From: a virus
IMG/VR virus record: IMGVR_UViG_3300044971_004534
Direction: 5' to 3' (one strand)
Length of the DNA: 64,000 nt
The notes below the pieces were generated by a model that worked only from the letters and a program-made list of their open reading frames with translations, was not told the DNA's origin and ran no database searches. Position numbers and translations under genes: made by a program. Shown in pieces: positions 3 to 53,090 of this stretch; the stretch's first letter is position 1; every line of letters starts with the position of its first letter.

Positions 3-3000
3 GTTTCTTGTAATAAATATGCATTTTATAAGAATGATACCAGTGATTACAATATTGATGGCGGAATTAACTATATTAATGACGTTGTTCTTGGCGCTTC
101 AGCTGAAAATGCATTTAATTATACTGGCAATATAGGTTTTGAATTTAGTAAAATAAAACAATTGTTTATTGACTACCTGTCTGTTCCTTCAGGCCTTGCC
201 GTTATGGGATCAGAATTAAACAAGGCCATCAGGCAGATGTTTGAGACTGTTGTTGTTTCTAAAAACTTTGCGCCAAAAGCAAAGATTGGTATAGTCAATT
301 CTCCTGTAGTTCCTTTTAGTATGCCAAATTTTGATTGGAGCACAGCAAGTGAGTCTGAAAGATATAACATTATTGACAAGTGTGCTTCTTTAATCGAGGA
401 TACTATATCAGAAGTAGATTTTATTGCCCTTGACATGAGGCAGCAATTTGAAATTCAAAATAATGTTCAATATGCTTCTTTCTTGTCTTATGCAATATCT
501 GTAGTTAAGCACTTTAAGCAGTGGCTTTCCAGTAAGGGATTAACTAAAAAGATATTCGCAGTTGTATCTAAAGAAAGCTATCAAGATTTTACAGAAGTCC
601 CAAACGACAAGTATACTACATTAATAGCTTCAGTATCAGAATATGTTGATGGATTTGTGTATAAGAGTTTAACTGCTGAAAAATGGATTCAACTATTTGA
701 TGGTGACGCAAATAATGACCAGGCTGCTTTTGATTCACTTTCTTCTATATTAAACAGAAATGTTGGTTCGGCAGATACTGCTACTTACAATGCCATACAG
801 TCTTACAATCTTAGCAACTTGACGACATTAAAGTCTACTGTATCTTTCAATTGCAGATCTTACAATGTCTCAAACAGTAGTGGAGATGTAATATCATTTA
901 GAGCAACCAGAGGACCTAGTTACCCAGAGTGGATGAGTAGCGCAAGACTTATGATGAAATTTAGTCTTTCTGCAGAAAACATAAAGTCATGTGCAGCATT
1001 GGCTGTGCCTCATATGCCAGCTGCAAGTTCTCTATCTGATGAAGACACTATAGTTTGCGTATTTGTAAATACTCAATATGTGTCTAATAGTAGCCTGTTT
1101 ACAATAAGTGGTGCGTCTTGCAATGCAGTTAGAAAAATATCTACAGCAAGATCTGTTTTCTTAAATGCTCTTCAACTACAGCAGTTTGTTAACTATGCAG
1201 TCAGTTATGCGCCAGACGTTTTAGTATTTGATGCACATCAATTTGATGAACCCCTATGGTACAGTACTGCCACTCCAATTGGTACTTGGAATATATTAAC
1301 ATCGCATCCAGGATATGGTCTTGGTCCTGGTTTGGATATAATAGACACATATGTTGCTGCAGCCAGTACTGTTGGTTCCAAGTGTGTACTAGATATCAAT
1401 CCATGCTCTTTTGTTACTTTGCCTGCATCTCAATATCCTTATAGTCTAAATTGCTTTGGCGGAATCATTAAAGAAAATTTTGACAATGGCATTAACATAT
1501 CTATTAGAAGTTTCTTAAATCAAAACTTTGTTGATCTTACTTATCAGTATCATGATGAGCTATTTAGTAAGGGTGTTGATGGCGTTATGTGGAACAGAGA
1601 AGTTTTATCCGATTATGGAGACTTTTCCGCAAATGTTATTGAAAAATTTGCTCGGTATTTAGGATACGAATCTGCAAATGAGTTAGAATTTAAAGAAAGA
1701 TTCCCTTTCCCAGCAGTCTGCGGTTCATCACTTGGAAATTATCTATATAGTGCAGCAGGATTCACTGGGACTTGTGATAGTAGCGCTAATATCAGTGTTG
1801 AAGATTTGGTGTTTAAAATACCGAATTTTGGCACATTATATACACAGGAGATAAAAGACACTTTAATTGAATACTTTGCATTCTGTCATAATTTGGCAAA
1901 TGCAAACATACTGTATATACAAAACAAAATTGATTATTCTTATGGAACTTCAGGATTAAAAGTAATTATCCCCCATGTTGGATCGGATATAATTTATAAA
2001 TGGAAGTCATCTTTAAGTTCTGAAATATTAAACTCAGCCAGCGTCATCACTGTTAATTCTGGTATTGAAAAACAAGCTCGCTCTCGTAGAATAAAAAATG
2101 CCAATACTTCTAATAATACTCAAGAAATACAAAGACCTGGAGCTGCTACTGTAGAAAACTTTGGCTTAGACTTGCTGTCTTCTTCTGATGGTAAAAAGAT
2201 TATAATTAGAAAGTTGCCAAATATATTTAAATATGCAGATACCAGTGTGGCGTCTCAGTGGAATAATTTTGATAATGTTAATGCAACGAATATAGTTGAA
2301 GACGGAATTGTTAGAGAGGACGGGATCAAGGGGCATCTTGCTTCTTGTGTATTTGACTACATAAGAGCTGGTCATGCTGTAATGCTTGACATGCCTAATT
2401 GGTCTAATTATCAAGAAGACGGTGAAACTGTCAATTATTCATATGTGAATAATGACCCGCCCAGAAATGATATGCCATTTGTCTTAAATGTAGTAGATAT
2501 TAACTCTTTAATGTCTACTCTAATATCCACTAGTGCTCGTAATAATAAGCATGCATGGGTTGGAGTGCATTATCCAAACAGAGCCAGAAAGTATGTTCAC
2601 GTTTCTGATTCTGTGGCTTCTTTTGGACAGGAATTCTATAGTGATTCAAATCTTGAGCTAAGTCGCTATGGCTATTCTGGAAGCATGTCAATAGGTCAGT
2701 TTAACTGGCCTATTTTTGGCGTGTATGAATCTTGCATATATAGTGGAATATCTTGTGCTGTTATAAATGATACTAGTTTAGAGAATGGAGATTTTTCAGG
2801 TTTAAGCGTAATAGTTATACCTCACAAGAAATTGTTGAGTTCTATGCAAAAAGATAAGTTAGATCAGTTTAACGGATCAGTAATTTATCTGGAAGATTTG
2901 TATGGTCAAGGTTTGCAGAACTTATGGCATAGCTCTTTAAACACTATTTCAACCAACAATCCTGACTATGTCACACTTTATAACTTGTTGATAAACAAGA

Positions 3001-6000
3001 TAAATGCTGTTGCAGGAAATCCTCCGGTAAAGGTTTCTGTTAATATTGATAATTCTATCAACACTGATAGTGGTAATTATATTCTCAAGCCATTTAGCGT
3101 TTTTGAGGTAAGCGAGTCTCCTGAATCTACTAAGATTGTTGTATGCGTTGCTAATGACAGAAACTGGGCAGATGTTAGAAACAACATAGATGAAAATGGA
3201 ATATATGGACAGATAGAAAGAAATAATGATTTATTGAATATAAGTTCAGCTAATCCTGTCTTCAATACAATATACAGTGGGGATGATTTTTATGTCAATA
3301 ATTCATATCCAGTTTTAGGACAATTTAATTACTATGCTGGAGACCCACCAGCTGGATTTGGAAAAACATTCTCTGTCAGACTTAGCTTTAAAAATAACAT
3401 TTCTCTTTTGAGTGTTACTCAAATATCTTGTAACTACTCAGATAATAATGTTTCTGGAACCAGTCTTTCTTGGTCTAGCGGAGCAAGCGGTCAGTCTGTA
3501 ATTTCAAATCTTATTTCTGATTTTGCATGGTTTGAAATAGAATTTTCATACATTACTCCTAGTTCAAGTTCTTCATCTTCTAGCTCGTCTTCAAGTTCTT
3601 CTTCTATTGATGATGGATGTATTACATGGACAGGACCTGGATGTTTAGACCTAGATGGTGATGGTGTTATAAAAGGATCTGATTTGGCTGCACTGTTTGC
3701 AGCTTATTCAGTATATGATCCTAAAGCAGACTTTAATGGGGATGGTGTTGTAAATAGTTTAGATTTAGGAATTTTGCAAGTAAATTGGGGTAGATGTGTA
3801 ACGTGTCCTAATTGGAATCCAAGTTCTAGCAGTTCTAGTAGTTCCAGCAGTTCTAGTAGTTCCAGCAGTTCTAGTAGTTCCAGCAGTTCCAGTTCCAGCA
3901 GTTCCAGTTCCAGCAGTTCCAGTTCCAGCAGTTCCAGTTCCAGCAGTTCTGAATGCGTTACATGGAACGGACCTGGCTGTCCAGATATGAATGTAGACGG
4001 CAAAGTTGACGGAGTAGACTTGCAAATATGCTTATCCGCTCAGTCTGAATATAATCCCGTTGCAGACTTGGATGGTAATGGAATTGTAAATGGAAATGAT
4101 TTAGGAATATTGATGACCTATTGGGGACAATGTGTAATATGTCCTAATTGGCCTCCAAGTTCGTCTAGTTCTAGCTCCAGTGTATCCAGTTCTAGTTCTT
4201 CTAGTTCAAGCTCCAGTGCATCCAGTTCTAGTTCTTCAAGCTCAAGCTCCAGCTCATCTACAATAGAGTTGTTTAGTATTTTGCAAGCCAGACCTTCAGT
4301 TGGTCCTAAACAGCCATCCTGGTGGTCAACAGCAAGCGTGCATTTCCAATCTTTCAATCCATATGCAACTATTAAGCAAATTTATGAAGCAAATATGGAT
4401 GAATCTGCTCCGGCAATCACAGAGCCATCTTTACTTGAGGTTTACAATGAGCAGTCATCTGGATGTGGGGTGCGTCCATATTACGCAAATAGTCCAACTG
4501 GGTATCCTCCTGGCTATGAGTTTACGTATCGTTCAGATTATGCATGGATGCGCTCTAATGGTAATAGCTTCAAGGAAAGATTTGAAAATGCATTAAATGC
4601 TTGGTTTAACCCAGAACAAAGAGCATTAGTGGCTCATAGATATAGGCCAGATATAGTTATGATAGATTTGCATAATGGTGATGAGCCATTTATCTATAAT
4701 TCTGCAGTCCCAAATGCAAAAACGTCTTTAATGATTGATGATGTTAGTGGTCTTTCTGATTATGATATGGTAAGGCCATTCATAAGAAAATCACACGAAC
4801 TTGGCATGAAATGCACTGCTTATTTCAAGCCGCACTTTGCTTTCCTAAACGAGAGCGTATTCCCTGCTGCACTTACTGCAAACGGGCAAAAAATAAGGGC
4901 AGAAGTTAACTTAACTCAGTCTTGTACTATTCAGAGAAGCATATTCAATGAAAACTTTAAAAACTTCTTGAAAAATTGCATGATTGAAATAGTTACACCT
5001 GAATCCGGTGGTGGACTTGAATGTGATGGAATTTATTGGGATGCAAGTTTGCTAGAAGAGTTATTAGATTTCAGTTCAGACGCAATAGATGTATATGCAA
5101 AATATTTAGGTTATTCTGGATACGACGACCCAGAGTATGTTTTGTGGGCTCAAAGTAACTTCCCATTCCCAAAAACTTCAGGATGGATCGTATCACAAGA
5201 GGATGGCTATATTGGCGGAGGTTCAAGGCCTTCTTACAAGAATGTTTATCCAGATAGTAATTTTGAAGGTTTAGGATATTACAATTTAATTAACAACAAT
5301 GTTGATTTAAATGAAAATCATATTGAGAATTTAAAAACTTTCGTATCAGTAATAAAGAATAGATACTATGAAATTTTAGATGAAATTTCTCAGGCTGTTT
5401 CTGTAGCTAGCAATGGCAATGCAGTTTTCTTCCCGGCAGAATTACCGTCATGGCCGGATCAACCACATGCATCTGTTTCTTCTGAGGTGGCCAGGTACAC
5501 TCATGCAGTAAAAACTGAATTTGCAGTTGAACCAAGAGGCTACAGTGGATTAAGACGAAAGTCAGAGCTTACTCAAGCTGTGTTGTCAAATGAGATATTA
5601 TACTGTGACATACAAAGACCTTCAATGTCTTTGTCTATGACTTTAAATCAAAAATTAGACTTCTTCTCTGGCAATAAGACAGCGATACAGTGGAATCCAC
5701 AGCGAGTGTGGATATCTGATTTACCAATTGGTTCCTCTGGATCTGCAAACACTCTTACCACATTTAATAGTGACCAGTTCTATGTTTATCCAACTGGCTA
5801 TCCTCTTTTCTTTGAAAGAGGGCTTGGAAGAGAGGATAGTATACATGGTTACTTGCGAGCCGTATATCAGATAATGATTAAAAATGGAAACATATTTGAC
5901 TTTAACACCTGGTACGGCGCAGGATGGGTTGGAGATCAGGATCAGTTTATACAAGATGCGACTTTGATTAATAATGATGGGTACTTCAACAATCCAGACA

Positions 6001-9000
6001 TGGGTGTTTCTCCTGGAAATACTTATGCTTTCTGGCGTAAGGCAATATATCACGCTAGAAAGATGAAAGAAGAAATTATTAAAGAAGGTTTAATATTTAA
6101 TATTCGTGAGGCATATTCTTGGGCAGCCATTCATGTTCCAGTACGCGGTCGCATAGGTATAGATGCACCTGTTTCTTGGGGTCAAGATTATGTAATAGGA
6201 CAGAATAAAACTATCAACAGGACTGTTACTACTAATGAAAACAATCAAAATTGGGGTCAATTTTGGTGGCCAATTTTGGGGGCAATGCAGGCATTTGAAG
6301 ATAGATTTATTCCTTATAGTTTGTTGTTGGACGAGCAGCTCTATAATGGTGAGCTAAACGGAATTAGTGTTATAATTATACCTCATCGTGAATGGCTGAC
6401 TGTCACTGATCAAATAAGGTTGCTGCAATTTGAGACTGCTGGCGGCAAAGTCGTGTATATGGATAATGCGTTCTCCGATTCTGGTGGAGGATCTTCTGAT
6501 CCAAGAAGAAAAGGTCGTTGGTATTCTTATGAAGATCAAAATTCTGAGTCTATCAAATTTATAAACTATGTAAAATTAATTGCTGGAGAGCCAACATTCA
6601 GCGGATCTGTTACTAGTTATGAGTATGACGATGGCACTTATCGTCATAAGCAGGCGGGCTGGTTTAAATTATCTGAGCAAGACTCAGACGGCAAGCTGCT
6701 AGTTGGAGTTCATTTATTAAACGACATGTCTTGGATGGATATGCGCAAAAATGCTTCTATGCTAAGTGGTATCGATCCAAGATTCAATCAATTAGACCCA
6801 GTGACTGTTCCAGTTAAGGGATTAATGGATCAAGATTTATTTGGCTGGGGCGAAGATTGGAGAAATTGGTACAACGAAAACTTTGATCCTACTAATCCGC
6901 CACACGCCTCAATATTACCTTATCCTATTCCCAACCCTGATCCATCTGCAAATGTAAAGCAATATTTCTACGATCCACACGCTGAAAACATGTGGGGCAA
7001 GCCATTGATTGGATATGGACAATATTGGTCTGCAAATCTCCGTTTAAATTTGCCATCAGATTTTAGAATTAACAAAGTTTATAAATTCTATGTTGATCAA
7101 GAAAACGATCCAAACGATGCTGGTATTACAAAGAAGGCATTTAACTATAGAGCTGCTGCTGAGTCTACAGTCATGTCGTTAAGTAATATGCCATATCTGC
7201 CTAGACTAAATAGTATAAATACTTCTAATACGGCTAACGTTATAAATTATGGAGCTATAGGCGATGGTGTTTCTGATGATACTCAAGCATTTATCGATGC
7301 AATTGCATCTGGATTTAGCGCAATATATATACCTGCTGGTAAATATAGAATCACTTCTTCTTTAAATATTAGTGATTCAGTTAATATAATTGGAGATATC
7401 GGATCTAGTATATTAATGTCTGACATTCAAGGCGGAAATGCTTTGTTTAATATTGTCCCAGAAGGTTCCGCAGTAACCTATTCTTATGAAGGTCAAATAT
7501 TTAGTGGTCAAAAAGAATTCCAACTTTCTAGCACCATAGGCTTAAGCGTAGGTCAAAAATTAATTTTCAAAATTGGACATGAGTCTGCAAGTTCACTTTC
7601 GTTTGAATATGCCTACGATATAGAAATACAATCTATTAATGGAAATATTATTACATCTGCTAGCGGTGCTCCGTTTGCATCTGATAAATTGATTCATAAA
7701 ATCGACGTGTATGCTATGTCTCCTCATGATTTAGTCATAGAGGGAATAGATATTACTAGTTATGATGAAAATTCTTCTTATTATGCATTTAATTTACTTA
7801 ATTGCATTAATGTTAATTTAAGAAATATTAATATATTTAATTCTTCTTTCCATGGTATAAGGATTAATAAATCTTCAAAAATTAGTATTGAAAGATGTGT
7901 ATTTGACAATATTGGTGCTGGTAGTGGTGCAATGCCAAGTGCAACAGCTATAACAGTCACCTATGCTTATGATCTTAATCTTTACAGGAATTATGTTAAG
8001 AACAGTCTTAGTGGATTATTGAATCTATTTAAATCAAGAAAAATCAATGGATCATATCTGTGGGTAAACAATTGTCAGGATGCATGCTCTTTTGCTTACA
8101 TAAGAGATATATTAGAATTTGAAGTAACTAATGTTTATATAAACAATAAAGACTTAATATTTGTAACAGATTTAGGAGTATCAAGTCCATACAGTACAAG
8201 TAATGTATATCTGCTGCAAAAACCATTTGAATTTAATGTTTCTAATCATAGTGGAATTTTGCGCATAGAAAATAGGGTTTTCAATGGCGTTACGTCTGGA
8301 GTGATTACTATTCCAGTCAATCCTCCAATTGTCTCAAGTTCTTCTGGAAATGAATCTTTAGATGTAATTGCATGGGGTGCTGGTTCTGATCCTTCCAAAT
8401 ATCAAAGAGCAAATAGTTGGAATGATTTATATGTCACTGTTCCTAGAAGCTATGCGCACAAAGACCAGTCATATATACCGTATATTGATAATCCAGAAAA
8501 GGTAGAAATACAAGAGGGCAATACCTTTGTTCTTGATGCTAATGGGAAAATGTATTCTTCTGGAAGCACCAAATTTAACATGAGACCGCTTCCGGCTAGC
8601 ATAACTGATAATACAGTAATAGATTTTTCATCATCTTTATATCAGTTAGGTTTAATTATATCAGATAATGGGACGGGAGACTTGAGTGTTCTTGTACATG
8701 GTAGAAAACAGTATAACTTGTGCAGAACATTAAAGTTTAATAATAACAGCAATGAAATATTTTATGTTAATGCAAATGGAAAAATAGGTAGAGTCAACGT
8801 ATTTAGTCAGCAAGAAATTGATGGAATAGTTTATGGTCACAACGATGTATGGTCAGATGGAAATCCACTGTATCAAATTTCATGCAACAGTATACAATTT
8901 ACACAAAACGGAAAGCTTGGTATATTTGGAGCTTTGTGGAGTTGGGAATTTGGAGCATATAATATAGCTCAAGTTTATAATTTAGAAACAAAACAAAATG

Positions 9001-12000
9001 ATCATATTACTCCAAAATCAGTCCTGCTTTTAAGAAGAGATGATCCTCAAAATGCTTGGATACCAGAGTGGGCATGGTCTAGTCAAGATACAGTACAGGA
9101 CAGAATGCTGTGTCATTCATTGTCTGATAGTAATGATCATATATTCATATTTGGATTATGGTACATCTATAAAATAGATATAGTAACTAAAGAAATAATT
9201 AGTAAGAAAAAAATATGGGACATATTCACTCCAGGTATGTTCTCTGATGATCCATGCCCAATAGGGTATGCAAAATACTTACCACAATCTTCAAAATGGG
9301 TTATCATGCTTCTCGACACTTATAATTATCCAGTGTTGAATGGATATCTTGGAGTAGTTACTGATTCTGACTTTAATGTTTTACATTATATAGAAGATCC
9401 TTCAAATGATGGTCAAGGATCTTTGATGTATCCTAATGTTCATAAGCAAGTAGACATTAGTAGTGATGAAAAAAGATTAGTTATTTCTTCTTATTCTTAC
9501 AGCGGTGAAAAAACTTTTGTCAATTTAATTAATTTAGCTAGTGGGGGAAGTAGTCTGTGGACATTAGAATTAAATTCAGAAACAGAAGACGACTTTGTTG
9601 CAAGATTTGTAAAGTTTACTCAAGATAACAGCTATATTGTAGTTGGACTAGTAAGGAATATAAAAATATTAAACTTGGCAGGAGCTCCTATTGATATTAA
9701 TGATTCAGAAAATTCATATACAAGCTTTGCATCTACAATTGATGATGTTTCTACGGGTGTTTTGAATAACGATATTATAGTTTGCACTCGTTCTACTGGA
9801 GGTTGGTGTATATCTGGATGGGAGTCTGTCGCTGAATTTGCGCCAACTGAAAATCAAATACAAAAATTCACCTTTGACAATGGTGGCGTAAGAAAATTTG
9901 CTTTTTCTCCTGATGGTCTAAGGTGTAGTTATTGGGGATGGTCTAATTATTATAGGGTTTCAAATTCACCAAGACTTGAAGACTTTAGCTTTGTTGATAC
10001 TAATTTTACTATCAAAGATAGATCTAATTTGGCTATAGATATATTTGACTATATAGGCGATGCTGTTCCAGTGTCTATAGCAACCGGTGTAGAAAATGCT
10101 GCTGTTGTGCTTTCTAACGGTTCTTTGTTCTGCTGGGGAACTAATCGTCAAAACGAAACTGATTATCCAGATGTTTCAAATGCAAAAAGTGTTCATTATG
10201 TTTCTGAGCATTGGTCAAACACTCTTTTTGACAGTGAGGGGCGGCCTCTTAGAGGAAGAGGTTACATAGTATTACTTAAAGATGGAACAATAAAACTATG
10301 GGGTAGTTGGGTATTCTTGGAGGGATATGCAGACCTGTTGCAAATAAACGATGCTATAAAAATATCTTGCAGCTCTTGGTATGTCACTGTGTTGCATTCT
10401 AATGGCGTTGCATCTTTGCATGGCAGAACTGACGTTGTGCCTCCAACAGAGCCTTTCCCTGAAAATGAGAGCAATATTATAGACATTGCTTCTACTAGAT
10501 TGGGTGGAATGTTGCTTAAAGCAAGCGGAGACGTAATTACTTGGGGATATGAATCTGTAGATAGTAATCCAGCTTCATGGACATATGGATCTGGATTGAC
10601 TCACAGGCCGAGTGCAGCTATAGGTAAAGTTGCCAAGTTAGGCACCTCTTATTTTGGAGCATATCCTGTTATTAAGCAAGATGGAAGAATCGCATGTTGG
10701 GGCTGGGATAGCTTTAGATTATGCGCTGGAGGTGATGATGCTAATGGAGACGGAATTCCTGATTATGTTTGCAATGGTATAGTTAGAGAAGGTTACAATT
10801 ACAATAACACTCCTCCATTAAGAAGTAGTTTCATAGATATTTCTGCTGGAAGAATGCATACTTCTTTCGTATTAAATGACAAAACTGCTTATTTTACGGA
10901 TTGGTCTTCGGATAAAATTGATAATTATGTTGACTATGGACAATTTGGTCCATTACAGGACTGGTATCCTGCTGCTAATTCATTCGCACAGTCTGATATG
11001 CCATCTCCTTTGAATAAAAATATAAAGAGTGTTTCTAGTGGATTTGGTTACACATATTTTATAAGAGAAGACAATTCTATATTCTCTATTGGAGCAGATC
11101 CTGGCATGGGATTGGTAAATGTTTTATGGGCCTGGCTATTTGAGTGGGATGTTGATTTTGAAATGCCACTTTTTGCTCCCATAACGTTCCAGGCAATAAC
11201 TCCTAGTGATCTCACCCATGCTAAGAAAATAGCTGCCGGAGATTTCCATACAGCAGCAATTACTATGGAAAATACGGTTAGGTGCTGGGGTTATAATAAA
11301 TTTGGTCAATGTGATGTGCCTGCAGAAGCTGTAGACATAGTGGATATTGCAGTTGGAAGGTATCATACCGTTGCTGTTAAGGCAGATGGTTCAGTGATTT
11401 GCTGGGGAAGAGACAATAAGGGGCAATGTGCTGTTCCCTCAAGCATTCCACCAATTAAAAAGGTTGCGGCATGCATGAGTCACAATGTGGCGTTGACAAC
11501 TAGTGGCAACTTGGTTTATTGGGGCAGTGGTGATCATTATGATGCATTAAGTTTATTTAATGGCAATCCGTTCCCCTCTGAGTCTCCTAATCAGCGTGGA
11601 GATTATGCATCCAGTGGAAATTACACTGATGTATCTACAGGAGTTTTCCATACGATAGCTCTTAAGAACGATGGAACAGTTGCAGTGTGGGGTAAGGCAA
11701 ATTATAATACCGGTATTCCAGGTTTTGACAATAATTTTGGTCAATTTGATTATCCAGAGCTTAATGGTAAAAAGGTAGTAAAAATTTCTGCTGGACATTA
11801 CCATAATGTAATATTGGTGAAAAATCAAAATATTGTTACTGAACAAAGAAGTGCTAATTTAGCTGACGGCATATTAAAGAAAGTAGAATTTAATTTAACC
11901 AACTCAAGTGGCATTAGTGAATTGTACTTAAATAACTCTTCTGGTCAATCTGTAATCGTTGTTCCAGAAAGTCTTGGGCCAACGGTAAATAAGCCAATAT

Positions 12001-14291
12001 CTGGAATAGACTATTTTGGTAACAACCATTTGTTCAATGACTATTCTGACAAGTCGTTTAATTGGACTATTAATTCTCTTGCAAATGAACAGAATATAAG
12101 TTTTAAGGTAGACTATTTTGATTACTCAAATTCTTATCTTGTTTCTGATGACAATGAGATTAGTCTATATTATGATGAGGATGCTTCTCAGTGGAACGTT
12201 AATGTAGAAAAGATTGGTATGCACGCTTTTGTTGTCATGGAAATGCAGCAAATGATGGTGTCTTCAAGTTCAAGTTCTTCTGAATCTTCTTCCAGTAGTT
12301 CCAGTTCCAGTAGTTCCAGTTCCAGTAGTTCCAGTTCCAGTAGTTCCAGTTCCAGTAGTTCCAGTTCCAGTAGTTCCAGTTCCAGTAGTTCCAGTTCTAG
12401 TAGTTCCAGTTCCAGTAGTTCTGTTTGTACTAGAATATGGAGTGGTCCATATGGCTGCCCTGACATCAATGGTGATGGTTTTGTTGACTTTAGAGACTTG
12501 GATGCTATGATATCTCTATCTGGTACAGTTAATCCAAGCTCTAGGCAATCTGTGTCTGCAGACTTAAATGGGGACGGCTCTATAAATGTTGCAGACCAAA
12601 TATTGTTACTTAATTTTGGATATGGCTGTTGTGAATGCCCAAATTTTGTATGGCCCATATCAAGTAGTTCAACCAGTGCTGGATCTAGTAGTTCATCTTC
12701 TTTTGAAGATGAAGATATAGATTTTACTTCTTCTTCAAGTAGTTCAAGACCTATTGGTTCTTCTTCTAGTTCTTCTTCTAGTTCTTCTTCAGAAGAATCA
12801 AGCTCATCAAGCTCAAATGAATTTGATCAAGCTGCTAATTTCTCTCAAATATCTACTCAAAGGTCTTCTAGTATAGACGCAGAATTTGGAATTCAGTTCT
12901 ACAACACTGGATTTGGAGGAGCAGTTGCTGATAGTTTAAATATTAATTTTGCTCAATTAAGTCCAGTTTCAATAGCTAGGGGAGACTCTTATTCAGGAAT
13001 AGTCACTTTTTACAATGGTACAAGAATTGGTAAATACGATACTGTATCTCTAGAGGTTAAAAATGAGTCTGTAAAGTATGCAGGCTCGGTGCCTCACACG
13101 GTTCTAGAAGATTCATTTGAAGGAGTGAATACCGGCTTGGCTGCAGGCCTCGGTCAAGTGCAAAATATTAATATTGTTTCTCAAAGAAGTAAAATGTTAA
13201 GTATGTATGTTGAGGATCTAAGATATGAGACAAATTATTTTGGTTACAATATGTATTTTGCAAAACAAAAAGAATCTGTAGAAAGAAATGGATCTTTCGT
13301 CACCAACTTTGATGCGATTACGGAGTCAAATATTGATCATGTATCTTCTGATATTTACTACAAGAAAGTTATATCTAGTTCTACAATTATTAAATCAATA
13401 GGATTATTGCAGCAAGTAGTTCTTTTAGAAGATAATAAAGTTATGGTAATTGGTAATAAGAATATTGGAATTCTAGATGGTGATCTTAATTTTGAATTTA
13501 TAAACTTTAGTTTTGAAGACGGTGAAAATGTATTAAGTGCAAATATATTTGACGATGGTATAGTGGTATGCACATCAAATAGATTTGTAGTATTTGATAT
13601 TTCTATTAAGTTTATGTATTCAGTTGGATATCCAGGTAGTATTGGCACTCCAATATGTGGTTATGGGAACAATAGCGAACTTGTATTAAGCACCAGTAAT
13701 GGTATTTACTACAAACTTTTTGATGCCCCAAGTTTTGTGAGAACATATATACCATCAATATCTGGATCAAACAATCCAGATGGTGTATATAAATTTATAG
13801 ATAATAATAATGCGACCATAGGAATAGGTAAAAATATATATTGGACAAATAATAATCAATTATTTTCTAAAGTTTCTACGGAGACTGTTAATTACAATAT
13901 TCGTTCAGTTGCCAAATTCTTTAATCGGTACGTTTTTGCTACTGACAAAGGCGTATTTGTTTCAGCACTTAACATGTTGGGTTCAAATAGCGTGCAGGCT
14001 TCTCTAGCTTCTCAGTCTATATTGCCAAATAGTCCCATATCTTTTATAGATATTGCGGTAGAACAGAACCAGGTGGGTGCAAATCTTGTTAGTGCTACCG
14101 TGTATGCAATACGTTCTGACGGCGTATTATTTATATCTGAAGATCCAGCTAATTATTTTGACACTATTGAAACCCCAATTAAAAAGCCTATTATGTTACT
14201 TGTTAAGGGGTCTGATGTTTTAGTGTTCTCTAATAATAATGTATATTCGAAAAATACTAATGTGATAAAGACTTTAACTAGGAGTTTGTAA
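3..14291 (+). CDS. Giant multidomain fibre/adhesin-depolymerase-like protein, 5' end outside the window (>4,760 aa)
   Basis: Frame 3 has no stop from nt 3 to the TAA at 14289-14291. The ORF track starts at an internal TTG at 162, but the 53 upstream codons are also open. Recognisable parts are two paralogous hydrolase-like modules, three dockerin-like modules between poly-Ser tracts, a pectate-lyase-3 type beta-helix, WD40/PD40-like blades (FAFSPDG), RCC1 blades and a C-terminal propeller-like region. Confidence 0.85.
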   Translation, partial: VSCNKYAFYKNDTSDYNIDGGINYINDVVLGASAENAFNYTGNIGFEFSKIKQLFIDYLSVPSGLAVMGSELNKAIRQMFETVVVSKNFAPKAKIGIVNSPVVPFSMPNFDWSTASESERYNIIDKCASLIEDTISEVDFIALDMRQQFEIQNNVQYASFLSYAISVVKHFKQWLSSKGLTKKIFAVVSKESYQDFTEVPNDKYTTLIASVSEYVDGFVYKSLTAEKWIQLFDGDANNDQAAFDSLSSILNRNVGSADTATYNAIQSYNLSNLTTLKSTVSFNCRSYNVSNSSGDVISFRATRGPSYPEWMSSARLMMKFSLSAENIKSCAALAVPHMPAASSLSDEDTIVCVFVNTQYVSNSSLFTISGASCNAVRKISTARSVFLNALQLQQFVNYAVSYAPDVLVFDAHQFDEPLWYSTATPIGTWNILTSHPGYGLGPGLDIIDTYVAAASTVGSKCVLDINPCSFVTLPASQYPYSLNCFGGIIKENFDNGINISIRSFLNQNFVDLTYQYHDELFSKGVDGVMWNREVLSDYGDFSANVIEKFARYLGYESANELEFKERFPFPAVCGSSLGNYLYSAAGFTGTCDSSANISVEDLVFKIPNFGTLYTQEIKDTLIEYFAFCHNLANANILYIQNKIDYSYGTSGLKVIIPHVGSDIIYKWKSSLSSEILNSASVITVNSGIEKQARSRRIKNANTSNNTQEIQRPGAATVENFGLDLLSSSDGKKIIIRKLPNIFKYADTSVASQWNNFDNVNATNIVEDGIVREDGIKGHLASCVFDYIRAGHAVMLDMPNWSNYQEDGETVNYSYVNNDPPRNDMPFVLNVVDINSLMSTLISTSARNNKHAWVGVHYPNRARKYVHVSDSVASFGQEFYSDSNLELSRYGYSGSMSIGQFNWPIFGVYESCIYSGISCAVINDTSLENGDFSGLSVIVIPHKKLLSSMQKDKLDQFNGSVIYLEDLYGQGLQNLWHSSLNTISTNNPDYVTLYNLLINKINAVAGNPPVKVSVNIDNSINTDSGNYILKPFSVFEVSESPESTKIVVCVANDRNWADVRNNIDENGIYGQIERNNDLLNISSANPVFNTIYSGDDFYVNNSYPVLGQFNYYAGDPPAGFGKTFSVRLSFKNNISLLSVTQISCNYSDNNVSGTSLSWSSGASGQSVISNLISDFAWFEIEFSYITPSSSSSSSSSSSSSSSIDDGCITWTGPGCLDLDGDGVIKGSDLAALFAAYSVYDPKADFNGDGVVNSLDLGILQVNWGRCVTCPNWNPSSSSSSSSSSSSSSSSSSSSSSSSSSSSSSSSSSSSSSSSSSSECVTWNGPGCPDMNVDGKVDGVDLQICLSAQSEYNPVADLDGNGIVNGNDLGILMTYWGQCVICPNWPPSSSSSSSSVSSSSSSSSSSSASSSSSSSSSSSSSTIELFSILQARPSVGPKQPSWWSTASVHFQSFNPYATIKQIYEANMDESAPAITEPSLLEVYNEQSSGCGVRPYYANSPTGYPPGYEFTYRSDYAWMRSNGNSFKERFENALNAWFNPEQRALVAHRYRPDIVMIDLHNGDEPFIYNSAVPNAKTSLMIDDVSGLSDYDMVRPFIRKSHELGMKCTAYFKPHFAFLNESVFPAALTANGQKIRAEVNLTQSCTIQRSIFNENFKNFLKNCMIEIVTPESGGGLECDGIYWDASLLEELLDFSSDAIDVYAKYLGYSGYDDPEYVLWAQSNFPFPKTSGWIVSQEDGYIGGGSRPSYKNVYPDSNFEGLGYYNLINNNVDLNENHIENLKTFVSVIKNRYYEILDEISQAVSVASNGNAVFFPAELPSWPDQPHASVSSEVARYTHAVKTEFAVEPRGYSGLRRKSELTQAVLSNEILYCDIQRPSMSLSMTLNQKLDFFSGNKTAIQWNPQRVWISDLPIGSSGSANTLTTFNSDQFYVYPTGYPLFFERGLGREDSIHGYLRAVYQIMIKNGNIFDFNTWYGAGWVGDQDQFIQDATLINNDGYFNNPDMGVSPGNTYAFWRKAIYHARKMKEEIIKEGLIFNIREAYSWAAIHVPVRGRIGIDAPVSWGQDYVIGQNKTINRTVTTNENNQNWGQFWWPILGAMQAFEDRFIPYSLLLDEQLYNGELNGISVIIIPHREWLTVTDQIRLLQFETAGGKVVYMDNAFSDSGGGSSDPRRKGRWYSYEDQNSESIKFINYVKLIAGEPTFSGSVTSYEYDDGTYRHKQAGWFKLSEQDSDGKLLVGVHLLNDMSWMDMRKNASMLSGIDPRFNQLDPVTVPVKGLMDQDLFGWGEDWRNWYNENFDPTNPPHASILPYPIPNPDPSANVKQYFYDPHAENMWGKPLIGYGQYWSANLRLNLPSDFRINKVYKFYVDQENDPNDAGITKKAFNYRAAAESTVMSLSNMPYLPRLNSINTSNTANVINYGAIGDGVSDDTQAFIDAIASGFSAIYIPAGKYRITSSLNISDSVNIIGDIGSSILMSDIQGGNALFNIVPEGSAVTYSYEGQIFSGQKEFQLSSTIGLSVGQKLIFKIGHESASSLSFEYAYDIEIQSINGNIITSASGAPFASDKLIHKIDVYAMSPHDLVIEGIDITSYDENSSYYAFNLLNCINVNLRNINIFNSSFHGIRINKSSKISIERCVFDNIGAGSGAMPSATAITVTYAYDLNLYRNYVKNSLSGLLNLFKSRKINGSYLWVNNCQDACSFAYIRDILEFEVTNVYINNKDLIFVTDLGVSSPYSTSNVYLLQKPFEFNVSNHSGILRIENRVFNGVTSGVITIPVNPPIVSSSSGNESLDVIAWGAGSDPSKYQRANSWNDLYVTVPRSYAHKDQSYIPYIDNPEKVEIQEGNTFVLDANGKMYSSGSTKFNMRPLPASITDNTVIDFSSSLYQLGLIISDNGTGDLSVLVHGRKQYNLCRTLKFNNNSNEIFYVNANGKIGRVNVFSQQEIDGIVYGHNDVWSDGNPLYQISCNSIQFTQNGKLGIFGALWSWEFGAYNIAQVYNLETKQNDHITPKSVLLLRRDDPQNAWIPEWAWSSQDTVQDRMLCHSLSDSNDHIFIFGLWYIYKIDIVTKEIISKKKIWDIFTPGMFSDDPCPIGYAKYLPQSSKWVIMLLDTYNYPVLNGYLGVVTDSDFNVLHYIEDPSNDGQGSLMYPNVHKQVDISSDEKRLVISSYSYSGEKTFVNLINLASGGSSLWTLELNSETEDDFVARFVKFTQDNSYIVVGLVRNIKILNLAGAPIDINDSENSYTSFASTIDDVSTGVLNNDIIVCTRSTGGWCISGWESVAEFAPTENQIQKFTFDNGGVRKFAFSPDGLRCSYWGWSNYYRVSNSPRLEDFSFVDTNFTIKDRSNLAIDIFDYIGDAVPVSIATGVENAAVVLSNGSLFCWGTNRQNETDYPDVSNAKSVHYVSEHWSNTLFDSEGRPLRGRGYIVLLKDGTIKLWGSWVFLEGYADLLQINDAIKISCSSWYVTVLHSNGVASLHGRTDVVPPTEPFPENESNIIDIASTRLGGMLLKASGDVITWGYESVDSNPASWTYGSGLTHRPSAAIGKVAKLGTSYFGAYPVIKQDGRIACWGWDSFRLCAGGDDANGDGIPDYVCNGIVREGYNYNNTPPLRSSFIDISAGRMHTSFVLNDKTAYFTDWSSDKIDNYVDYGQFGPLQDWYPAANSFAQSDMPSPLNKNIKSVSSGFGYTYFIREDNSIFSIGADPGMGLVNVLWAWLFEWDVDFEMPLFAPITFQAITPSDLTHAKKIAAGDFHTAAITMENTVRCWGYNKFGQCDVPAEAVDIVDIAVGRYHTVAVKADGSVICWGRDNKGQCAVPSSIPPIKKVAACMSHNVALTTSGNLVYWGSGDHYDALSLFNGNPFPSESPNQRGDYASSGNYTDVSTGVFHTIALKNDGTVAVWGKANYNTGIPGFDNNFGQFDYPELNGKKVVKISAGHYHNVILVKNQNIVTEQRSANLADGILKKVEFNLTNSSGISELYLNNSSGQSVIVVPESLGPTVNKPISGIDYFGNNHLFNDYSDKSFNWTINSLANEQNISFKVDYFDYSNSYLVSDDNEISLYYDEDASQWNVNVEKIGMHAFVVMEMQQMMVSSSSSSSESSSSSSSSSSSSSSSSSSSSSSSSSSSSSSSSSSSSSSSSSSSSSSVCTRIWSGPYGCPDINGDGFVDFRDLDAMISLSGTVNPSSRQSVSADLNGDGSINVADQILLLNFGYGCCECPNFVWPISSSSTSAGSSSSSSFEDEDIDFTSSSSSSRPIGSSSSSSSSSSSEESSSSSSNEFDQAANFSQISTQRSSSIDAEFGIQFYNTGFGGAVADSLNINFAQLSPVSIARGDSYSGIVTFYNGTRIGKYDTVSLEVKNESVKYAGSVPHTVLEDSFEGVNTGLAAGLGQVQNINIVSQRSKMLSMYVEDLRYETNYFGYNMYFAKQKESVERNGSFVTNFDAITESNIDHVSSDIYYKKVISSSTIIKSIGLLQQVVLLEDNKVMVIGNKNIGILDGDLNFEFINFSFEDGENVLSANIFDDGIVVCTSNRFVVFDISIKFMYSVGYPGSIGTPICGYGNNSELVLSTSNGIYYKLFDAPSFVRTYIPSISGSNNPDGVYKFIDNNNATIGIGKNIYWTNNNQLFSKVSTETVNYNIRSVAKFFNRYVFATDKGVFVSALNMLGSNSVQASLASQSILPNSPISFIDIAVEQNQVGANLVSATVYAIRSDGVLFISEDPANYFDTIETPIKKPIMLLVKGSDVLVFSNNNVYSKNTNVIKTLTRSL
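1140..3550 (+). other. Paralogous module A inside giant ORF 1 (glycoside-hydrolase-like, tentative)
   Basis: Colinear with module B. PDVLVFDAHQFDEPLWY matches PDIVMIDLHNGDEPFIY. GVDGVMWNREVLSDYGDFSANVIEKFARYLGY..ERFPFP matches CDGIYWDASLLEELLDFSSDAIDVYAKYLGY..SNFPFP. REDGIKGHLASCV matches REDSIHGYLRAVY. GQFNWPIFG..FSGLSVIVIPH matches GQFWWPILG..LNGISVIIIPH. The DG(V/I)xW motif and the trailing xxVIIPH segment resemble TIM-barrel GHL/GH42-type architecture, judged by eye only. Confidence 0.5.
3561..3605 (+). repeat. Poly-Ser tract 1 (15 Ser codons)
   Basis: Uninterrupted run of in-frame AGT/TCA/TCT/AGC/TCG codons. Confidence 0.95.
3606..3821 (+). other. Cys-bracketed dockerin-like / EF-hand pair module 1
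   Basis: Sequence is DGCITWTGPGCLDLDGDGVIKGSDLAALFAAY...DFNGDGVVNSLDLGILQVNWGRCVTCPNW. It has two DxDGDGxV-type Ca-binding loops, each followed by a helix, as in type I dockerins. Conserved Cys pairs flank the module. Confidence 0.65.
3822..3950 (+). repeat. Poly-Ser tract 2 (43 Ser codons) built from tandem DNA units
   Basis: The 18-nt unit agttctagtagttccagc occurs 3 times (3831-3884). The 15-nt unit agttccagttccagc then occurs 4 times (3885-3944). All units are in frame. Confidence 0.95.
3951..4157 (+). other. Cys-bracketed dockerin-like module 2
   Basis: ECVTWNGPGCPDMNVDGKVDGVDLQICL...DLDGNGIVNGNDLGILMTYWGQCVICPNW is colinear with module 1. Confidence 0.65.
4158..4259 (+). repeat. Ser-rich tract 3 (34 codons, Ser with single Val and Ala)
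   Basis: In-frame Ser codons, SSSSSSSVSSSSSSSSSSSASSSSSSSSSSSSS. Confidence 0.95.
4560..7150 (+). other. Paralogous module B inside giant ORF 1 (glycoside-hydrolase-like, tentative)
   Basis: Colinear with module A; see the motif pairs listed for 1140-3550. Confidence 0.5.
7233..8330 (+). other. Pectate-lyase-3 / tailspike-type right-handed beta-helix domain
   Basis: ANVINYGAIGDGVSDDTQAFIDAIASG..IYIPAGKYRI is the classic N-terminal signature. Parallel beta-helix repeats follow (NLLNCINVNLRNINIFNSSFHGIRINKSSKISIERCVFDNIG). Confidence 0.7.
10075..11825 (+). other. RCC1-like beta-propeller repeats
   Basis: Repeated blades are SLFCWGTNRQNETDYP, VITWGYES, RIACWGWDSF, TVRCWGYNKFGQCDVP, SVICWGRDNKGQCAVP, NLVYWGSGDH, TVAVWGKANYN and ISAGHYHNVIL. 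Confidence 0.75.
12261..12422 (+). repeat. Poly-Ser tract 4 (54 codons, one Glu) with a 15-nt tandem unit
   Basis: The unit agtagttccagttcc occurs 8 times from 12294 to 12413, plus a partial copy. There is a single tcc-to-tct variant. Confidence 0.95.
12423..12656 (+). other. Cys-bracketed dockerin-like module 3 (divergent)
   Basis: Sequence is VCTRIWSGPYGCPDINGDGFVDFRDLDAMISL...DLNGDGSINVADQILLLNFGYGCCECPNF. It has the same Cys-WxGP-GC-D-x-(D/N)-x-DG start and CxxCPN(W/F) end as modules 1 and 2. Confidence 0.6.
12660..12816 (+). repeat. Ser-rich / acidic low-complexity tract
   Basis: SSSSTSAGSSSSSSFEDEDIDFTSSSSSSRPIGSSSSSSSSSSSEESSSSSS. Confidence 0.9.
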
Positions 14292-15781
14292 TGGCTTACA
14301 TGGCAGCTTTGTCAAATGAATATGAACTTGAATGTTCTGGATTTTCTGGATCTGGAGGAGACAAGTCTTTCATATATAGAGAAAATGTTTATTTTTTGGG
14401 CAAGATACAAGCTTCAAACGTTTCTGCAGGCTATCTGGGCTTCCCGGGTTATTTTAAGATTGATGAAGCTCCATTTGCGATTGTATCTCAATTTGATGCA
14501 AGTACAAATTCTTTAAAATTAGTATGCAATGGTTACAGTTCTCCAGTTTTTAGAAATAGAGGCATTTGCAGGGATGACATTGTTGTTGGGGCCAAAAGCG
14601 GTGCAGTTAGATATGCTGGAAGAAATTTCAAAGTGTACACTGCAGACGGGGCTTCAATAGAAAAAACGGGCATTAAAGAAATTGGCTATAATCCTTTGCA
14701 CCACGATTTATTTGATTTTTCTTCTGATCCAGAAGTCATGTCTTTTGACAGATCTTTTCCTTTAAATAGAAATTTTTATAAAAACACTGTTTTTAATAAT
14801 TTAGATCAAAAGTTTGCTTGCATCGCCTTATTTGATAGAATTCCGCTACCTGTGCCATATACGGCAAATAAACATGGGTTTAGGCAGGCAGTAGCAGTTA
14901 CTCCTAGACATGTTTGTTTTTCAGATCACGTTTGGCCTTATATGGGTCACGACATTTCTTTTTACGATGTGGTACAAAAAACTATAGTTAATAGGACAAT
15001 AGTTAAAAAATTTAATTTTAATCTTCCAAATTATATATTAAAAAATGAAGATAACAATAATCTATCTTTTGGTCAAAGCGATCAAGGTATAGGCATATTA
15101 AACGAACCTTTGCCTCCAGGGGTTCCACTTGCGTATGTACCAGACGTAGCTTATAAGTCATATCCAGAAGCTACAAGAGTTAGAAAGATGCCAGCACTCG
15201 CTATTGATCTTTCAGCAAGAGGTTTATGCTGTAACGCTATAGTGGGTTTTTTAGGTAATGAAAATATTACTTCTAATATCACTATTATTAAAGCTGATCA
15301 ATTTACTGATGCTCTTGCATATCAAAACGCATGCTTAGATCACTGTAATGTTGGAGATTCTAGCACTATGTTTTTTACCTGTATTGATAACAGGTTAATT
15401 TACATGGGGTCTTTGGCTTCTGTTTCAAACAGTGTACATGGATTGTCTGGAACATTTTTGAACCAAGAATATGGATATGGAAAAATAGACTTGTCTTTCT
15501 TTCATTATCCTAATAGATCTGGAGTTATATCTTCTGAGGTAAAGGATAGATATTTACAAAATCAAAGCTATGGTACATCATTGAATTTTTGGTCTCGTGT
15601 TGGAAACAGGGCTTTAAGCTATATTTTTACTGATTTTGATGTATGGGAAACGAGCATAGACCCCTCTCATGTTCCATCAAGGATAAAAATAACTAATGAT
15701 ATAAATATTACAGAGTCTAATTCATATTTTGATTTGTCTAACGATAACTTATTAGACAGAAAAATAAAATTTATATCATGA
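14291..15781 (+). CDS. Hypothetical protein (496 aa) sandwiched between the two giant genes
   Basis: Long ORF. Its start overlaps the upstream stop (TAATG) and its stop overlaps the downstream start (ATGA). I recognised no motif. Confidence 0.75.
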   Translation: MAYMAALSNEYELECSGFSGSGGDKSFIYRENVYFLGKIQASNVSAGYLGFPGYFKIDEAPFAIVSQFDASTNSLKLVCNGYSSPVFRNRGICRDDIVVGAKSGAVRYAGRNFKVYTADGASIEKTGIKEIGYNPLHHDLFDFSSDPEVMSFDRSFPLNRNFYKNTVFNNLDQKFACIALFDRIPLPVPYTANKHGFRQAVAVTPRHVCFSDHVWPYMGHDISFYDVVQKTIVNRTIVKKFNFNLPNYILKNEDNNNLSFGQSDQGIGILNEPLPPGVPLAYVPDVAYKSYPEATRVRKMPALAIDLSARGLCCNAIVGFLGNENITSNITIIKADQFTDALAYQNACLDHCNVGDSSTMFFTCIDNRLIYMGSLASVSNSVHGLSGTFLNQEYGYGKIDLSFFHYPNRSGVISSEVKDRYLQNQSYGTSLNFWSRVGNRALSYIFTDFDVWETSIDPSHVPSRIKITNDINITESNSYFDLSNDNLLDRKIKFIS

Positions 15782-27784: not shown

Positions 27785-28510
27785 ATGAATTTGTTAATTG
27801 GCATATTGCAATATAATAAATATAATGTTACGTTAAAATGTATAGAGTCTATAGAAGCTTTTACGGGCTCTGTAGACTATACAATTTATTTATTAGATAA
27901 TAATTCCTATGACGGAAGTTTTGATCACATCAAAAATACATGCTCGTCTAAAAACAATATTGTTTTAGAAAAAAGCGAAACCAATAAGGGTGTTATAGGT
28001 GGCAGAAACGCTATATTTGAATATTTTAATCTTCATCAAAATTATACTCATTTGTTATTTATTGATAACGATCAATTTGTAAAAGACAAATGGATTGATG
28101 GATACATTGAAATATTTAAGAAATCACCTAATGCTATATGTGGTATAGAAGCATGGATACTGTCTAGCAACTTTACTCCATTGAGAAAATGTTCAGAAAA
28201 AGATTTTGGTTTTTCTTATGTTGGTTGCGGTGGCATGATGGTGTCTAGAGAAGCTTTTAACTCTATAGGTAAATTTGACGATGATTTTAATCCGGCTTAC
28301 TTTGAAGATCCAGATTATTGCTTAAGAGCTTTCTTTGAAAAAATTCCTGTTATATGGAATAGGGTTTCAAGAATTGATCATCTTCCTCATCAAACGCTTG
28401 GTCAAAGATCATTAAAAGCTGGTTTATCTTTTAGAAAATCCTTAAATGCGTTCAGGCAAAAATGGAAAGGCAAGTTTGGTGGTGGTATTATTTTTAGAGA
28501 TAATTTATGA
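27785..28510 (+). CDS. Family 2 glycosyltransferase
   Basis: Motifs are YLLDNNSYDGS, LLFIDNDQFV (DxD), GGMMVSREAF and YFEDPDYCLRA. Confidence 0.8.
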   Translation: MNLLIGILQYNKYNVTLKCIESIEAFTGSVDYTIYLLDNNSYDGSFDHIKNTCSSKNNIVLEKSETNKGVIGGRNAIFEYFNLHQNYTHLLFIDNDQFVKDKWIDGYIEIFKKSPNAICGIEAWILSSNFTPLRKCSEKDFGFSYVGCGGMMVSREAFNSIGKFDDDFNPAYFEDPDYCLRAFFEKIPVIWNRVSRIDHLPHQTLGQRSLKAGLSFRKSLNAFRQKWKGKFGGGIIFRDNL

Positions 28511-52381: not shown

Positions 52382-53090
52382 AGATAAGCTTGGTTTTATC
52401 TTAGGATCTGGTCCATCTTTAAGGGATATTAAGCCAGATTTACTGTCCCCATATGTTACTATGACAGTAAACTCTTCAATACTGTTTGACAAATCATGTG
52501 ATTATTTTGTCAGTGACGACTGGTCTGTTTCTAATTGGTCTTATTTTATAAGAGATTTGTCGCAGTCGTCTTGTGTAAAATTTCTTTATGATAAAAAGTT
52601 TCAAGGTAGAGCTTACCATTTGCGTCAGCACGAGGTTTGTATGTTTGAGCACACATGGTATTTTGATCCTAAAACAAAAAGATATAACATGAAAGGCTTA
52701 GTGATGGGCAGAGATTGCCAGCAGCCGGTTATAGGGGCTCGTACCAGTTTGGCAAGCGGCATCCACATTATGCGGATGATGGGCTGTAATCCGATTGTAA
52801 TGCTTGGATGTGATTGCAAAATGAATGGTGACAAAAGATACTTTTGGGAGTATCCAGGTTTTGTAAAGCCCGTAAGATTAGATAAGAGATCGGTTATGCC
52901 TTCTCATGCAAAAATTGCAATTGGATCAAAAGAGTGTCAAGATATTTTAGAATATTGGAAATTGTTTAAAAAAATGAATGAAAAATGTGATACTCATATA
53001 ATAAACGCAACTAAAGACTCTGCTTTAAATATTTTTGACCAATTTGAACTCGATAAAGTATTAGAAAAATATGGTGACAGGAAAAAATGA
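52344..53090 (+). CDS. DUF115 / Maf-like putative nonulosonic-acid transferase, paralogue 2
   Basis: GFILGSGPSL and TSLASGIHIMRMMGCNPIVMLGCDCKMNGDKRYFWEY are colinear with paralogue 1. Confidence 0.55.
   Translation: MALNICQFQNIHKDKLGFILGSGPSLRDIKPDLLSPYVTMTVNSSILFDKSCDYFVSDDWSVSNWSYFIRDLSQSSCVKFLYDKKFQGRAYHLRQHEVCMFEHTWYFDPKTKRYNMKGLVMGRDCQQPVIGARTSLASGIHIMRMMGCNPIVMLGCDCKMNGDKRYFWEYPGFVKPVRLDKRSVMPSHAKIAIGSKECQDILEYWKLFKKMNEKCDTHIINATKDSALNIFDQFELDKVLEKYGDRKK

Follow-up and report, generated by a model that had tools for sequence, protein, structure and literature searches.

What are the small cysteine-bracketed modules that interrupt long runs of serine in a giant viral protein, and what might they do there? 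This question is raised by a 64,000-nucleotide stretch of DNA (hereafter the window) from the IMG/VR virus record IMGVR_UViG_3300044971_004534. In an initial annotation of the window, two tandem dockerin-like modules were described within a giant open reading frame (ORF), each with two calcium-binding loops set in an extra frame of four cysteines (Cys), and were proposed to attach the giant protein to a partner. We find three such modules (M1, M2 and M3), which are genuine bacterial-type dockerins and represent a disulfide-framed, phage-borne variant not seen before. In our judgment it is highly probable that all three are true dockerin-fold modules with a four-Cys frame that has been under selection.

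Identity of the modules

The modules were scored with the Dockerin_1 hidden Markov model (PF00404), for which the curated gathering cut-off is 22.9 bits. M1, M2 and M3 reach 28.7, 24.3 and 35.6 bits, respectively, all above this cut-off, and modules from related phages (described below) score 19.9-30 bits. At the motif level, all six loops of M1-M3 fit the pattern D-x-[DN]-x-[DN]-G-x-x-x-x-x-[DE] with the canonical calcium (Ca) ligands D1, D/N3, D/N5 and D12. Such canonical loops occur exactly six times in the giant ORF and are absent from two neighboring ORFs. When PDB sequences were searched with a three-sequence profile, the best match was a dockerin from Pseudobacteroides cellulosolvens (2y3n_B, E = 7.5e-12), ahead of calmodulins.

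The AlphaFold2 model of M1 (mean predicted local distance difference test score 89.9) contains two helices, at residues 23-31 and 50-58, each of which follows a loop. The model fits the dockerin fold and superimposes best on 2y3n_B, with a root-mean-square deviation of 1.1 Å over 50 columns and 44% identity. A Foldseek search of PDB with this model returned at ranks 1-20 exclusively dockerins from solved cohesin-dockerin complexes, with probabilities of 0.66-1.0, while the probability for troponin and other EF-hand proteins was at most 0.02.

These comparisons also bear on the possibility that the modules are ordinary, calmodulin-like EF-hand Ca2+ sensors. Calmodulins do appear in the PDB sequence search (E ~1e-6), there are sub-threshold matches to Pfam EF-hand models, and some divergent relatives score similarly with EF-hand and Dockerin_1 models. 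Nevertheless, on M1-M3 every EF-hand model (EF-hand_1, 5, 6, 7 and 8) falls under its own cut-off while Dockerin_1 exceeds its own, the Foldseek probabilities separate the two kinds of protein, and the M1 model has one helix after each loop (an F-hand) rather than a helix-loop-helix. An EF-hand sensor is thus extremely improbable, and by profile, motif and predicted fold M1-M3 are bacterial-type dockerins. On identity, the conditions named in the initial annotation as refuting (no support from dockerin models, an unrelated predicted fold) turned out in favor of its reading.

Arrangement of the modules in the giant protein

Translation of positions 3561-4259 (plus strand) bears out residue for residue the order given in the initial annotation: 15 serines (Ser) and IDDG precede M1, which is followed by NP, 43 Ser, a single E, M2, PP and a Ser-rich segment of 34 residues (S8-V-S11-A-S13). 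M1 and M2 are 66 residues long each; their bracketing sequences are given in Table 1. Both of these modules are real, and the count of two was incomplete, as a third module of the same design, M3, lies within poly-Ser further downstream at 12426-12656. Across M1-M3, module size ranges from 66 to 77 residues. M1 and M2 are 52% identical and the pairwise identities among the three are 45-52%. The Ca loops of M1 and M2 are DLDGDGVI, DFNGDGVV, DMNVDGKV and DLDGNGIV. The earlier description of two loops followed by helices holds for both modules, and its loop consensus, D-x-(D/N)-G-(D/N)-G-x-(V/I), holds except for the first loop of M2, which has V at position 4.

An assembly artefact or low-complexity noise was considered as a source of these sequences and rejected. 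The poly-Ser tracts are encoded by mixed Ser codons, and three independent assemblies match the window at 100% identity over 21.5 kb, which together indicate that the modules are real coding sequence. The DNA pattern of the N-terminal bracket (N-bracket) occurs twice in the window, against an expectation of 0.01 from shuffled sequences.

The reading frame that carries the modules is open already at base 3 and extends past the 5' end of the window, so the start at position 162 given in the ORF list (162-14291) was not borne out. As called in contigs of 401 kb and 180 kb, the full product has 7,798 residues (7,788 in one variant contig), of which the window covers the last 4,762 at the C-terminal end but not the initial 3,036. 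In a relative with 76% identity, an IMG/VR viral contig, the homologous gene is split into parts encoding 5,086 and 2,584 residues. Within the window the order of domains is unit A, M1 and M2, unit A', a β-helix, an RCC1/BLIP-II-type propeller, M3 and a C-terminal domain. Units A and A' (~850 residues each) flank the M1/M2 pair and are paralogs of each other (24% identity over 872 columns, E = 7e-39 by BLASTP), and neither has a Pfam, PHROG or PDB sequence match. PDB sequence matches of the propeller region include BLIP-II and UVR8.

The four-cysteine frame in related phages

A locus search for relatives in IMG/VR and the JGI metagenome collection returned no relative, and the giant protein itself was not among the matches in either of two protein searches. 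Relatives were reached through homologs (36-99% identical) of the 496-residue gene that lies next to the giant ORF. In all relatives reached, the gene order is giant ORF, ~500-residue gene, second giant ORF, and the upstream giant ORFs likewise hold dockerins within poly-Ser.

The extra frame of four Cys noted in the initial annotation proved to be both real and conserved, being invariant in ten modules (here termed type A) from the window phage and four related phages. Its consensus has two parts: C-x2-3-W-x-G-x-G-C immediately precedes loop 1, and [WFY]-G-x-C-x2-C-P-N-[WF] immediately follows helix 2. In an alignment of seven modules with overall identities of 35-54%, C1, W4, G6, G8, C9 and C60 do not vary. 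All seven modules also have the fourth Cys, with the copy from relative L095, where the spacing is C-x3-C, shifted by the aligner. Three further modules from IMG/VR relatives keep the frame as well. Examples of type-A modules are CLSWEGSGCPD...FGLCITCPNW in relative L093 and CIVWSELGYLGCPD...YRCISNC in L095.

Individual modules were also compared with their orthologs. M3 has orthologs in L092 (87% identity) and L096 (78%), with no insertions or deletions and with every Cys retained, and this range of 78-87% compares with 70-75% for the flanking globular domains. The poly-Ser tract in front of M3 differs in length by 20-22 residues among the same orthologs. Because the module is free of insertions and deletions and more conserved than its flanks while linker length varies, the modules and their Cys frame are, as judged from these alignments, under purifying selection and the poly-Ser linkers behave as elastic spacers. 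The M1/M2 region has an ortholog in L097 (67% identity over 866 residues) in which the tandem arrangement is kept, and unit A is likewise orthologous to L097 at 67% identity. Two more type-A modules occur in L098, in a part of the giant ORF without a counterpart in the window.

The relatives also contain a second dockerin subtype, type B, in which a Cys pair lies between the two repeats (C-[WF]-[GN]-S-x4-C). It is found in L093 (nucleotides ~1600-1800), L095 (~2150-2350) and L091 (~3290-3930), the last with an additional pair, C-x2-G-D-x-N-C-D-G. Given this subtype, Cys stapling at the level of sequence is conserved as a principle while its placement varies.

Some further features of these contigs were observed. 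In L098 (IMG/VR UViG_3300042326_002445), a segment that begins CFGLGTMIKMADGSEKRIEDIKEGDILLS lies within residues ~290-460 of the open frame of the giant ORF. Its match to Hint is weak and below threshold (20.3 bits for Hom_end_hint, where the cut-off is 32.1), and it may be an autoprocessing domain. Several further Cys knots lie between poly-Ser tracts in the same stretch. The contigs of related phages end or have N-gaps exactly at poly-Ser (L093, nucleotides 1-30; L095, nucleotides 1-30; L091, nucleotides ~3600-3700). Short-read assemblies thus break at poly-Ser linkers, and giant genes of this kind are probably under-reported.

Occurrence of the frame and of viral dockerins elsewhere

With matches accepted at E up to 0.001, an exhaustive profile search yielded 25,172 proteins that have a dockerin-like core, and the complete four-Cys frame was present in none of the 169 proteins retrieved from it. 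Partial staples do recur in non-cellulosomal metagenomic dockerins, with CPxD...WGxC at the same positions, VWTGPCPD...FTCN in P0031 and P0131, and GGCxD...KCP in P0032, P0106 and P0142, and a Cys after the second helix is common among metagenomic dockerins. Since partial staples recur and the full frame was found in 0 of 169 proteins, the sequences indicate that the inner pair (C2 before loop 1 and C3 after helix 2) belongs to a wider theme, and that the clade of the window phage is distinguished by the outer pair (C1 and C4) along with the Trp and Pro-Asn-Trp brackets.

Pattern searches gave a similar picture. The exact N-bracket is absent from IMG/VR, and its 77 matches in 185k species genomes are all out-of-frame chance matches, none followed by a Ca loop, and give no lead to the host. 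A relaxed 45-bit pattern of bracket plus loop 1 matched three times in IMG/VR, each time in a relative of the window phage, and not at all in JGI metagenome contigs. A tblastn search with M1 found nothing similar in 50,697 deposited phage genomes. In the literature searched we found no description of dockerins in phage proteins, and papers on moraphages and Jug-phages contained nothing of relevance to this lineage, to giant proteins or to dockerins. No paper mentioning the sample accessions was found either.

The presence of dockerins in viruses is not in itself unique, because BFVD contains a few uncharacterized viral proteins with a dockerin fold. What is without a match elsewhere (among the 169 homologs, the 50,697 phage genomes, the species genomes and the literature) is the complete frame, the multi-copy internal placement on poly-Ser and the occurrence in giant proteins of a huge-phage clade. 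Dockerins outside cellulosomes are reportedly well known, a point ascribed to Peer et al. in 2009.

Possible functions of the Cys-framed dockerins

The M1 model suggests how the frame might work. A short strand pairing between residues 5-6 (N-bracket) and 63-65 (C-bracket), assigned by DSSP, would form a small β-ladder that brings the four Cys together. From this modeled pairing we infer two disulfides, most simply C1-C4 and C2-C3, that would tie the ends of the module to each other. Such disulfides would imply that the modules work in an oxidizing, Ca-containing setting beyond the cytoplasm, for example on the virion surface or in released material. There they could mediate Ca2+-dependent docking between proteins, the partner being cohesin-like or of another kind and encoded in the host or in another part of the phage genome, with the poly-Ser linkers acting as flexible, probably O-glycosylated tethers.

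The overall picture of disulfide-framed dockerins on poly-Ser tethers of a giant phage protein, acting as docking sites, is the one toward which we lean. Its specific functional component, that the modules dock a protein partner, is put forward more tentatively. Docking is the most economical reading because all solved structures with this fold among the hits are of partner-binding proteins, the paralogous modules have been kept distinct, and the Cys and Ca sites fit an extracellular setting. Companion domains of extracellular type (VWA, ConA-like lectin, Kelch and β-helix) and a set of glycosylation genes in the window also speak for it.

Several observations weigh on the other side. Each protein has at least three of the modules, all in internal positions, which departs from the single C-terminal position typical of dockerins in secreted enzymes. 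C-terminal placement is usual in the family without defining it, internal placement is no bar to membership, and tandem dockerins exist among solved proteins (8x39). Many non-cellulosomal dockerins are said to lack a known cohesin partner, again in an account attributed to Peer et al. in 2009. No virion genes are present in the window, which leaves a virion location unsupported, and PHROGs gave no tail-fibre or virion family on either giant protein. Finally, no cohesin was found. We searched the two giant proteins, every ORF of at least 150 residues in the window and the called genes of the 10 kb downstream with Pfam (E up to 0.01 for whole proteins and up to 1 for segments) and with phmmer against all PDB sequences. 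Neither PF00963 nor a PDB cohesin matched in this set, which covers neither the host, nor the other ~330 kb of phage DNA, nor the giant protein's first 3,036 residues. This result agrees with the initial annotation, in which no cohesin-like partner had been recognized in the window.

Overlap with a giant ORF at either end, at the start codon and at the stop codon, made the 496-residue gene the obvious candidate for encoding a partner. Its product has no Pfam or PHROG match. In a fold search its predicted structure matched hundreds of chymotrypsin-family proteases at Foldseek probability 1.0, including thrombin, elastase and plasmin, and an alignment of homologs shows that the motifs TPxHV, DxAIxLL and GDSNS, which correspond to the catalytic triad residues His, Asp and Ser, respectively, are kept in 16 of 16 sequences. 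The fold and the triad motifs rule this protein out as a cohesin, a further point on the opposing side. One may speculate that the protease processes the giant proteins.

If there is no dedicated partner, the modules might be structural beads, that is, Ca2+- and disulfide-stabilized mini-domains that punctuate the poly-Ser linkers. Beads would set spacing or stiffness, resist proteolysis, or compact only after leaving the low-Ca, reducing cytoplasm. This would agree with the lack of a cohesin in the window and 10 kb downstream, with the position of the modules, always within linkers between large domains and at least five per gene set in one relative, and with the presence of two Cys arrangements (types A and B) at equivalent places in relatives. 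It would also fit the second giant protein, in which poly-Ser linkers flank an unrelated Cys-rich knot at ~24472-24975 (CPFKCPTCVESTGGNTPCESGSLDCTGSDNTTC); a knot in the same position suggests a generic design of stapled domains in linkers. Nevertheless, the conservation of M3 slightly exceeds that of the globular domains on either side and extends to helix surface positions, which is more than a spacer would need. M1-M3 have diverged to 45-52% identity and each is kept in orthologs, consistent with distinct specificities, and the solved structures of the fold in the Foldseek list are all partner-binding dockerins. We consider beads, the main alternative to docking, rather unlikely as the explanation.

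A different kind of ligand might account for the failure to find a cohesin, with the modules acting as dockerin-fold adhesion domains that help the giant protein to hold onto cells or particles. Their direct ligand could be, for example, an S-layer, a glycan on the host surface or some other protein of the phage. The adhesin- and depolymerase-like neighbors (pectate-lyase-type β-helix, ConA-like lectin, VWA, and Kelch and RCC1 propellers) would be suitable company for such modules. The modules themselves offer little for glycan binding: aside from the bracket Trp, which the model appears to place in the staple, there is no aromatic platform like those of carbohydrate-binding modules, although this is a weak inference. 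Moreover, we know of no precedent for a bacterial-type dockerin that binds carbohydrate, which also counts against direct binding. It is therefore very unlikely that the modules act in this way.

Docking to a protein partner could be part of a larger scheme, a phage-encoded extracellular assembly resembling a cellulosome. Giant multi-enzyme or adhesin polyproteins would be cut by the S1 protease (perhaps also by Hint domains), glycosylated on poly-Ser by phage enzymes, and joined through the stapled dockerins to a divergent scaffold of cohesin type, located either on the virion or on the infected cell. This extended scheme is quite unlikely in our estimation. If true, no cohesin-dockerin system would have been known from a virus before, and bacterial viruses would have their own equivalent of the glycosylated fibrils that giant eukaryotic viruses carry.

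When protein assembly that is programmable and Ca-dependent is discussed, dockerins are the standard example, and synthetic biology makes wide use of them. A naturally stapled dockerin would be sturdier and possibly less Ca-dependent, which could suit dilute waters if such is the habitat of the phage. The presence of several copies in a phage protein of ~7,800 residues, beside a protease and genes for sugar decoration, points to an unexplored route by which huge phages might build large extracellular or virion-surface structures. Finding a partner would make the role of the giant genes of huge phages directly testable, and if none exists, the modules are a clean case for asking what orphan dockerins do. 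A viral cohesin-type partner, or display on the virion, would if shown sharply raise the interest of phage dockerins.

Comparison with known systems

The closest solved example is the Cel48 dockerin of P. cellulosolvens (PDB 2y3n chain B; type I, PF00404). It shares with the phage modules the duplicated 12-residue Ca loop (D1, N/D3, D/N5, D12) followed by a helix, a core of ~50-60 residues, the fold (as predicted for the phage modules) and Ser-rich linkers to modules of carbohydrate-active type. The phage modules differ from it in their four-Cys frame, the added N- and C-brackets, their internal multi-copy rather than single C-terminal placement, their encoding by a huge phage and the lack of a cohesin in the window.

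The best sequence matches are of another kind, metagenomic repeats of Planctomycetota/Phycisphaerales type (CPADLDGNGxVNGADLGxLLxxWGxCP), with P0004 being 74% identical over the second repeat. Like the phage modules, these repeats have a Cys just before the loop (C-P-x-D) and a W-G-x-C(-x2-C) ending after the helix, but their Cys flank each single repeat, the C-x2-W-x-G-x-G-C bracket is missing, and they are neither set in poly-Ser nor phage-borne.

Saccharophagus degradans, Cellvibrio japonicus and Teredinibacter turnerae secrete multi-domain carbohydrate depolymerases in which long poly-Ser tracts separate the functional modules (PMC2386152), and in Saccharophagus and Cellvibrio such linkers are an established design. 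Those proteins differ from the giant phage protein in carrying carbohydrate-binding modules instead of dockerins, in being ~10 times smaller and in being cellular rather than viral. A further parallel is offered by the dockerins of anaerobic fungi (Neocallimastigomycota), which are non-catalytic, CBM10-like docking modules that are small, Cys-rich and disulfide-bonded and often occur in tandem. Fungal dockerins have an unrelated fold without EF-hand-type Ca loops, and the modules in the window gave no match to the CBM_10 profile even at E up to 10.

Genomic context

The coordinates of the modules, linkers and neighboring features are collected in Table 1.

Table 1. Features of the window discussed in the text
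Feature	Position	Strand	Basis
Giant ORF, C-terminal 4,762 residues	3..14291	+	Open frame from base 3; full contigs 7,798 residues
Unit A, large globular, without family match, paralog of A'	1278..3560	+	BLASTP against A'; no Pfam match
Poly-Ser linker (15 Ser)	3561..3605	+	Translation
M1, dockerin with four-Cys frame (CITWTGPGC...WGRCVTCPNW)	3618..3815	+	Dockerin_1, 28.7 bits
Poly-Ser linker (43 Ser)	3822..3950	+	Translation
M2, dockerin with four-Cys frame (CVTWNGPGC...WGQCVICPNW) and extra Cys in helix 1	3954..4151	+	Dockerin_1, 24.3 bits
Ser-rich linker (S8-V-S11-A-S13)	4158..4259	+	Translation
Unit A', paralog of unit A	4260..7199	+	BLASTP, Pfam
Pectate-lyase-like right-handed β-helix (Pect-lyase_RHGA_epim)	7236..7919	+	E = 2e-10 to 1e-12
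RCC1/BLIP-II-like β-propeller repeats	10071..11954	+	WD40_RLD, 182 bits; RCC1_2, 130 bits
Poly-Ser linker (S7-E-S46) before M3	12261..12422	+	Translation
M3, dockerin (CTRIWSGPYGC...GYGCCECPNFVWP)	12426..12656	+	Dockerin_1, 35.6 bits
Ser-rich acidic linker after M3	12657..12815	+	Translation
Chymotrypsin-fold serine protease (496 residues), start and stop codons overlapping both giant ORFs	14291..15781	+	AlphaFold2 predicted template modeling score 0.78; Foldseek
Second giant ORF (3,994 residues) with VWA, ConA-like lectin and Kelch	15778..27762	+	Pfam, motif scan
Three glycosyltransferases (GT2, GT1-type, GT2), candidate linker-glycosylation enzymes	27785..30352	+	Directly after second giant ORF
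Nonulosonic-acid set: two MptE-like/DUF115 (Maf-type), CMP-sugar cytidylyltransferase, NeuB, HAD phosphatase, GT1	51518..56699	+	Domain matches

The window is a one-strand gene array that encodes a DnaB-like helicase, a UvsX-like recombinase, primase parts, a clamp loader, UvrD, a sigma-like factor and an IF3 homolog. The same genome occurs in many metagenomes, in contigs of up to 401 kb. The array of replication genes, the viral nature of the 76% relative and the contig sizes together fit a huge, phage-like genome of ~400 kb. A megablast search with 24 kb found no match among deposited phages, and the closest relative of its DnaE is only 34% identical.

Two groups of sugar-related genes are of interest with respect to the linkers. 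The set at 51518-56699, in which the NeuB match reaches 177 bits, looks from its domain matches like a phage-encoded pathway that makes, activates and probably transfers nonulosonic acid, and a sugar epimerase/dehydratase lies just past the window (L101, 13387-14349). Together with the glycosyltransferases directly after the second giant ORF, this gene context makes O-glycosylation of the linkers by the phage's own enzymes plausible.

Small ORFs at ~48322-48648 and 49389-49724 have matches to SpoVS and, weakly, to Thioredoxin_2, as precomputed on identical contigs; if one of them is thioredoxin-like, it could have a bearing on how disulfides form.

Two observations concern the replication and expression genes. 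The DnaE-type DNA polymerase III alpha subunit is encoded by two overlapping ORFs, one at 40126-41424 (PHP and N-terminal part) and the other at 41417-43369 (core and fingers), and this split is identical in all assemblies seen. The IF3 homolog, a phage-encoded translation initiation factor, lies at 35716-36210 (IF3_N, 86 bits).

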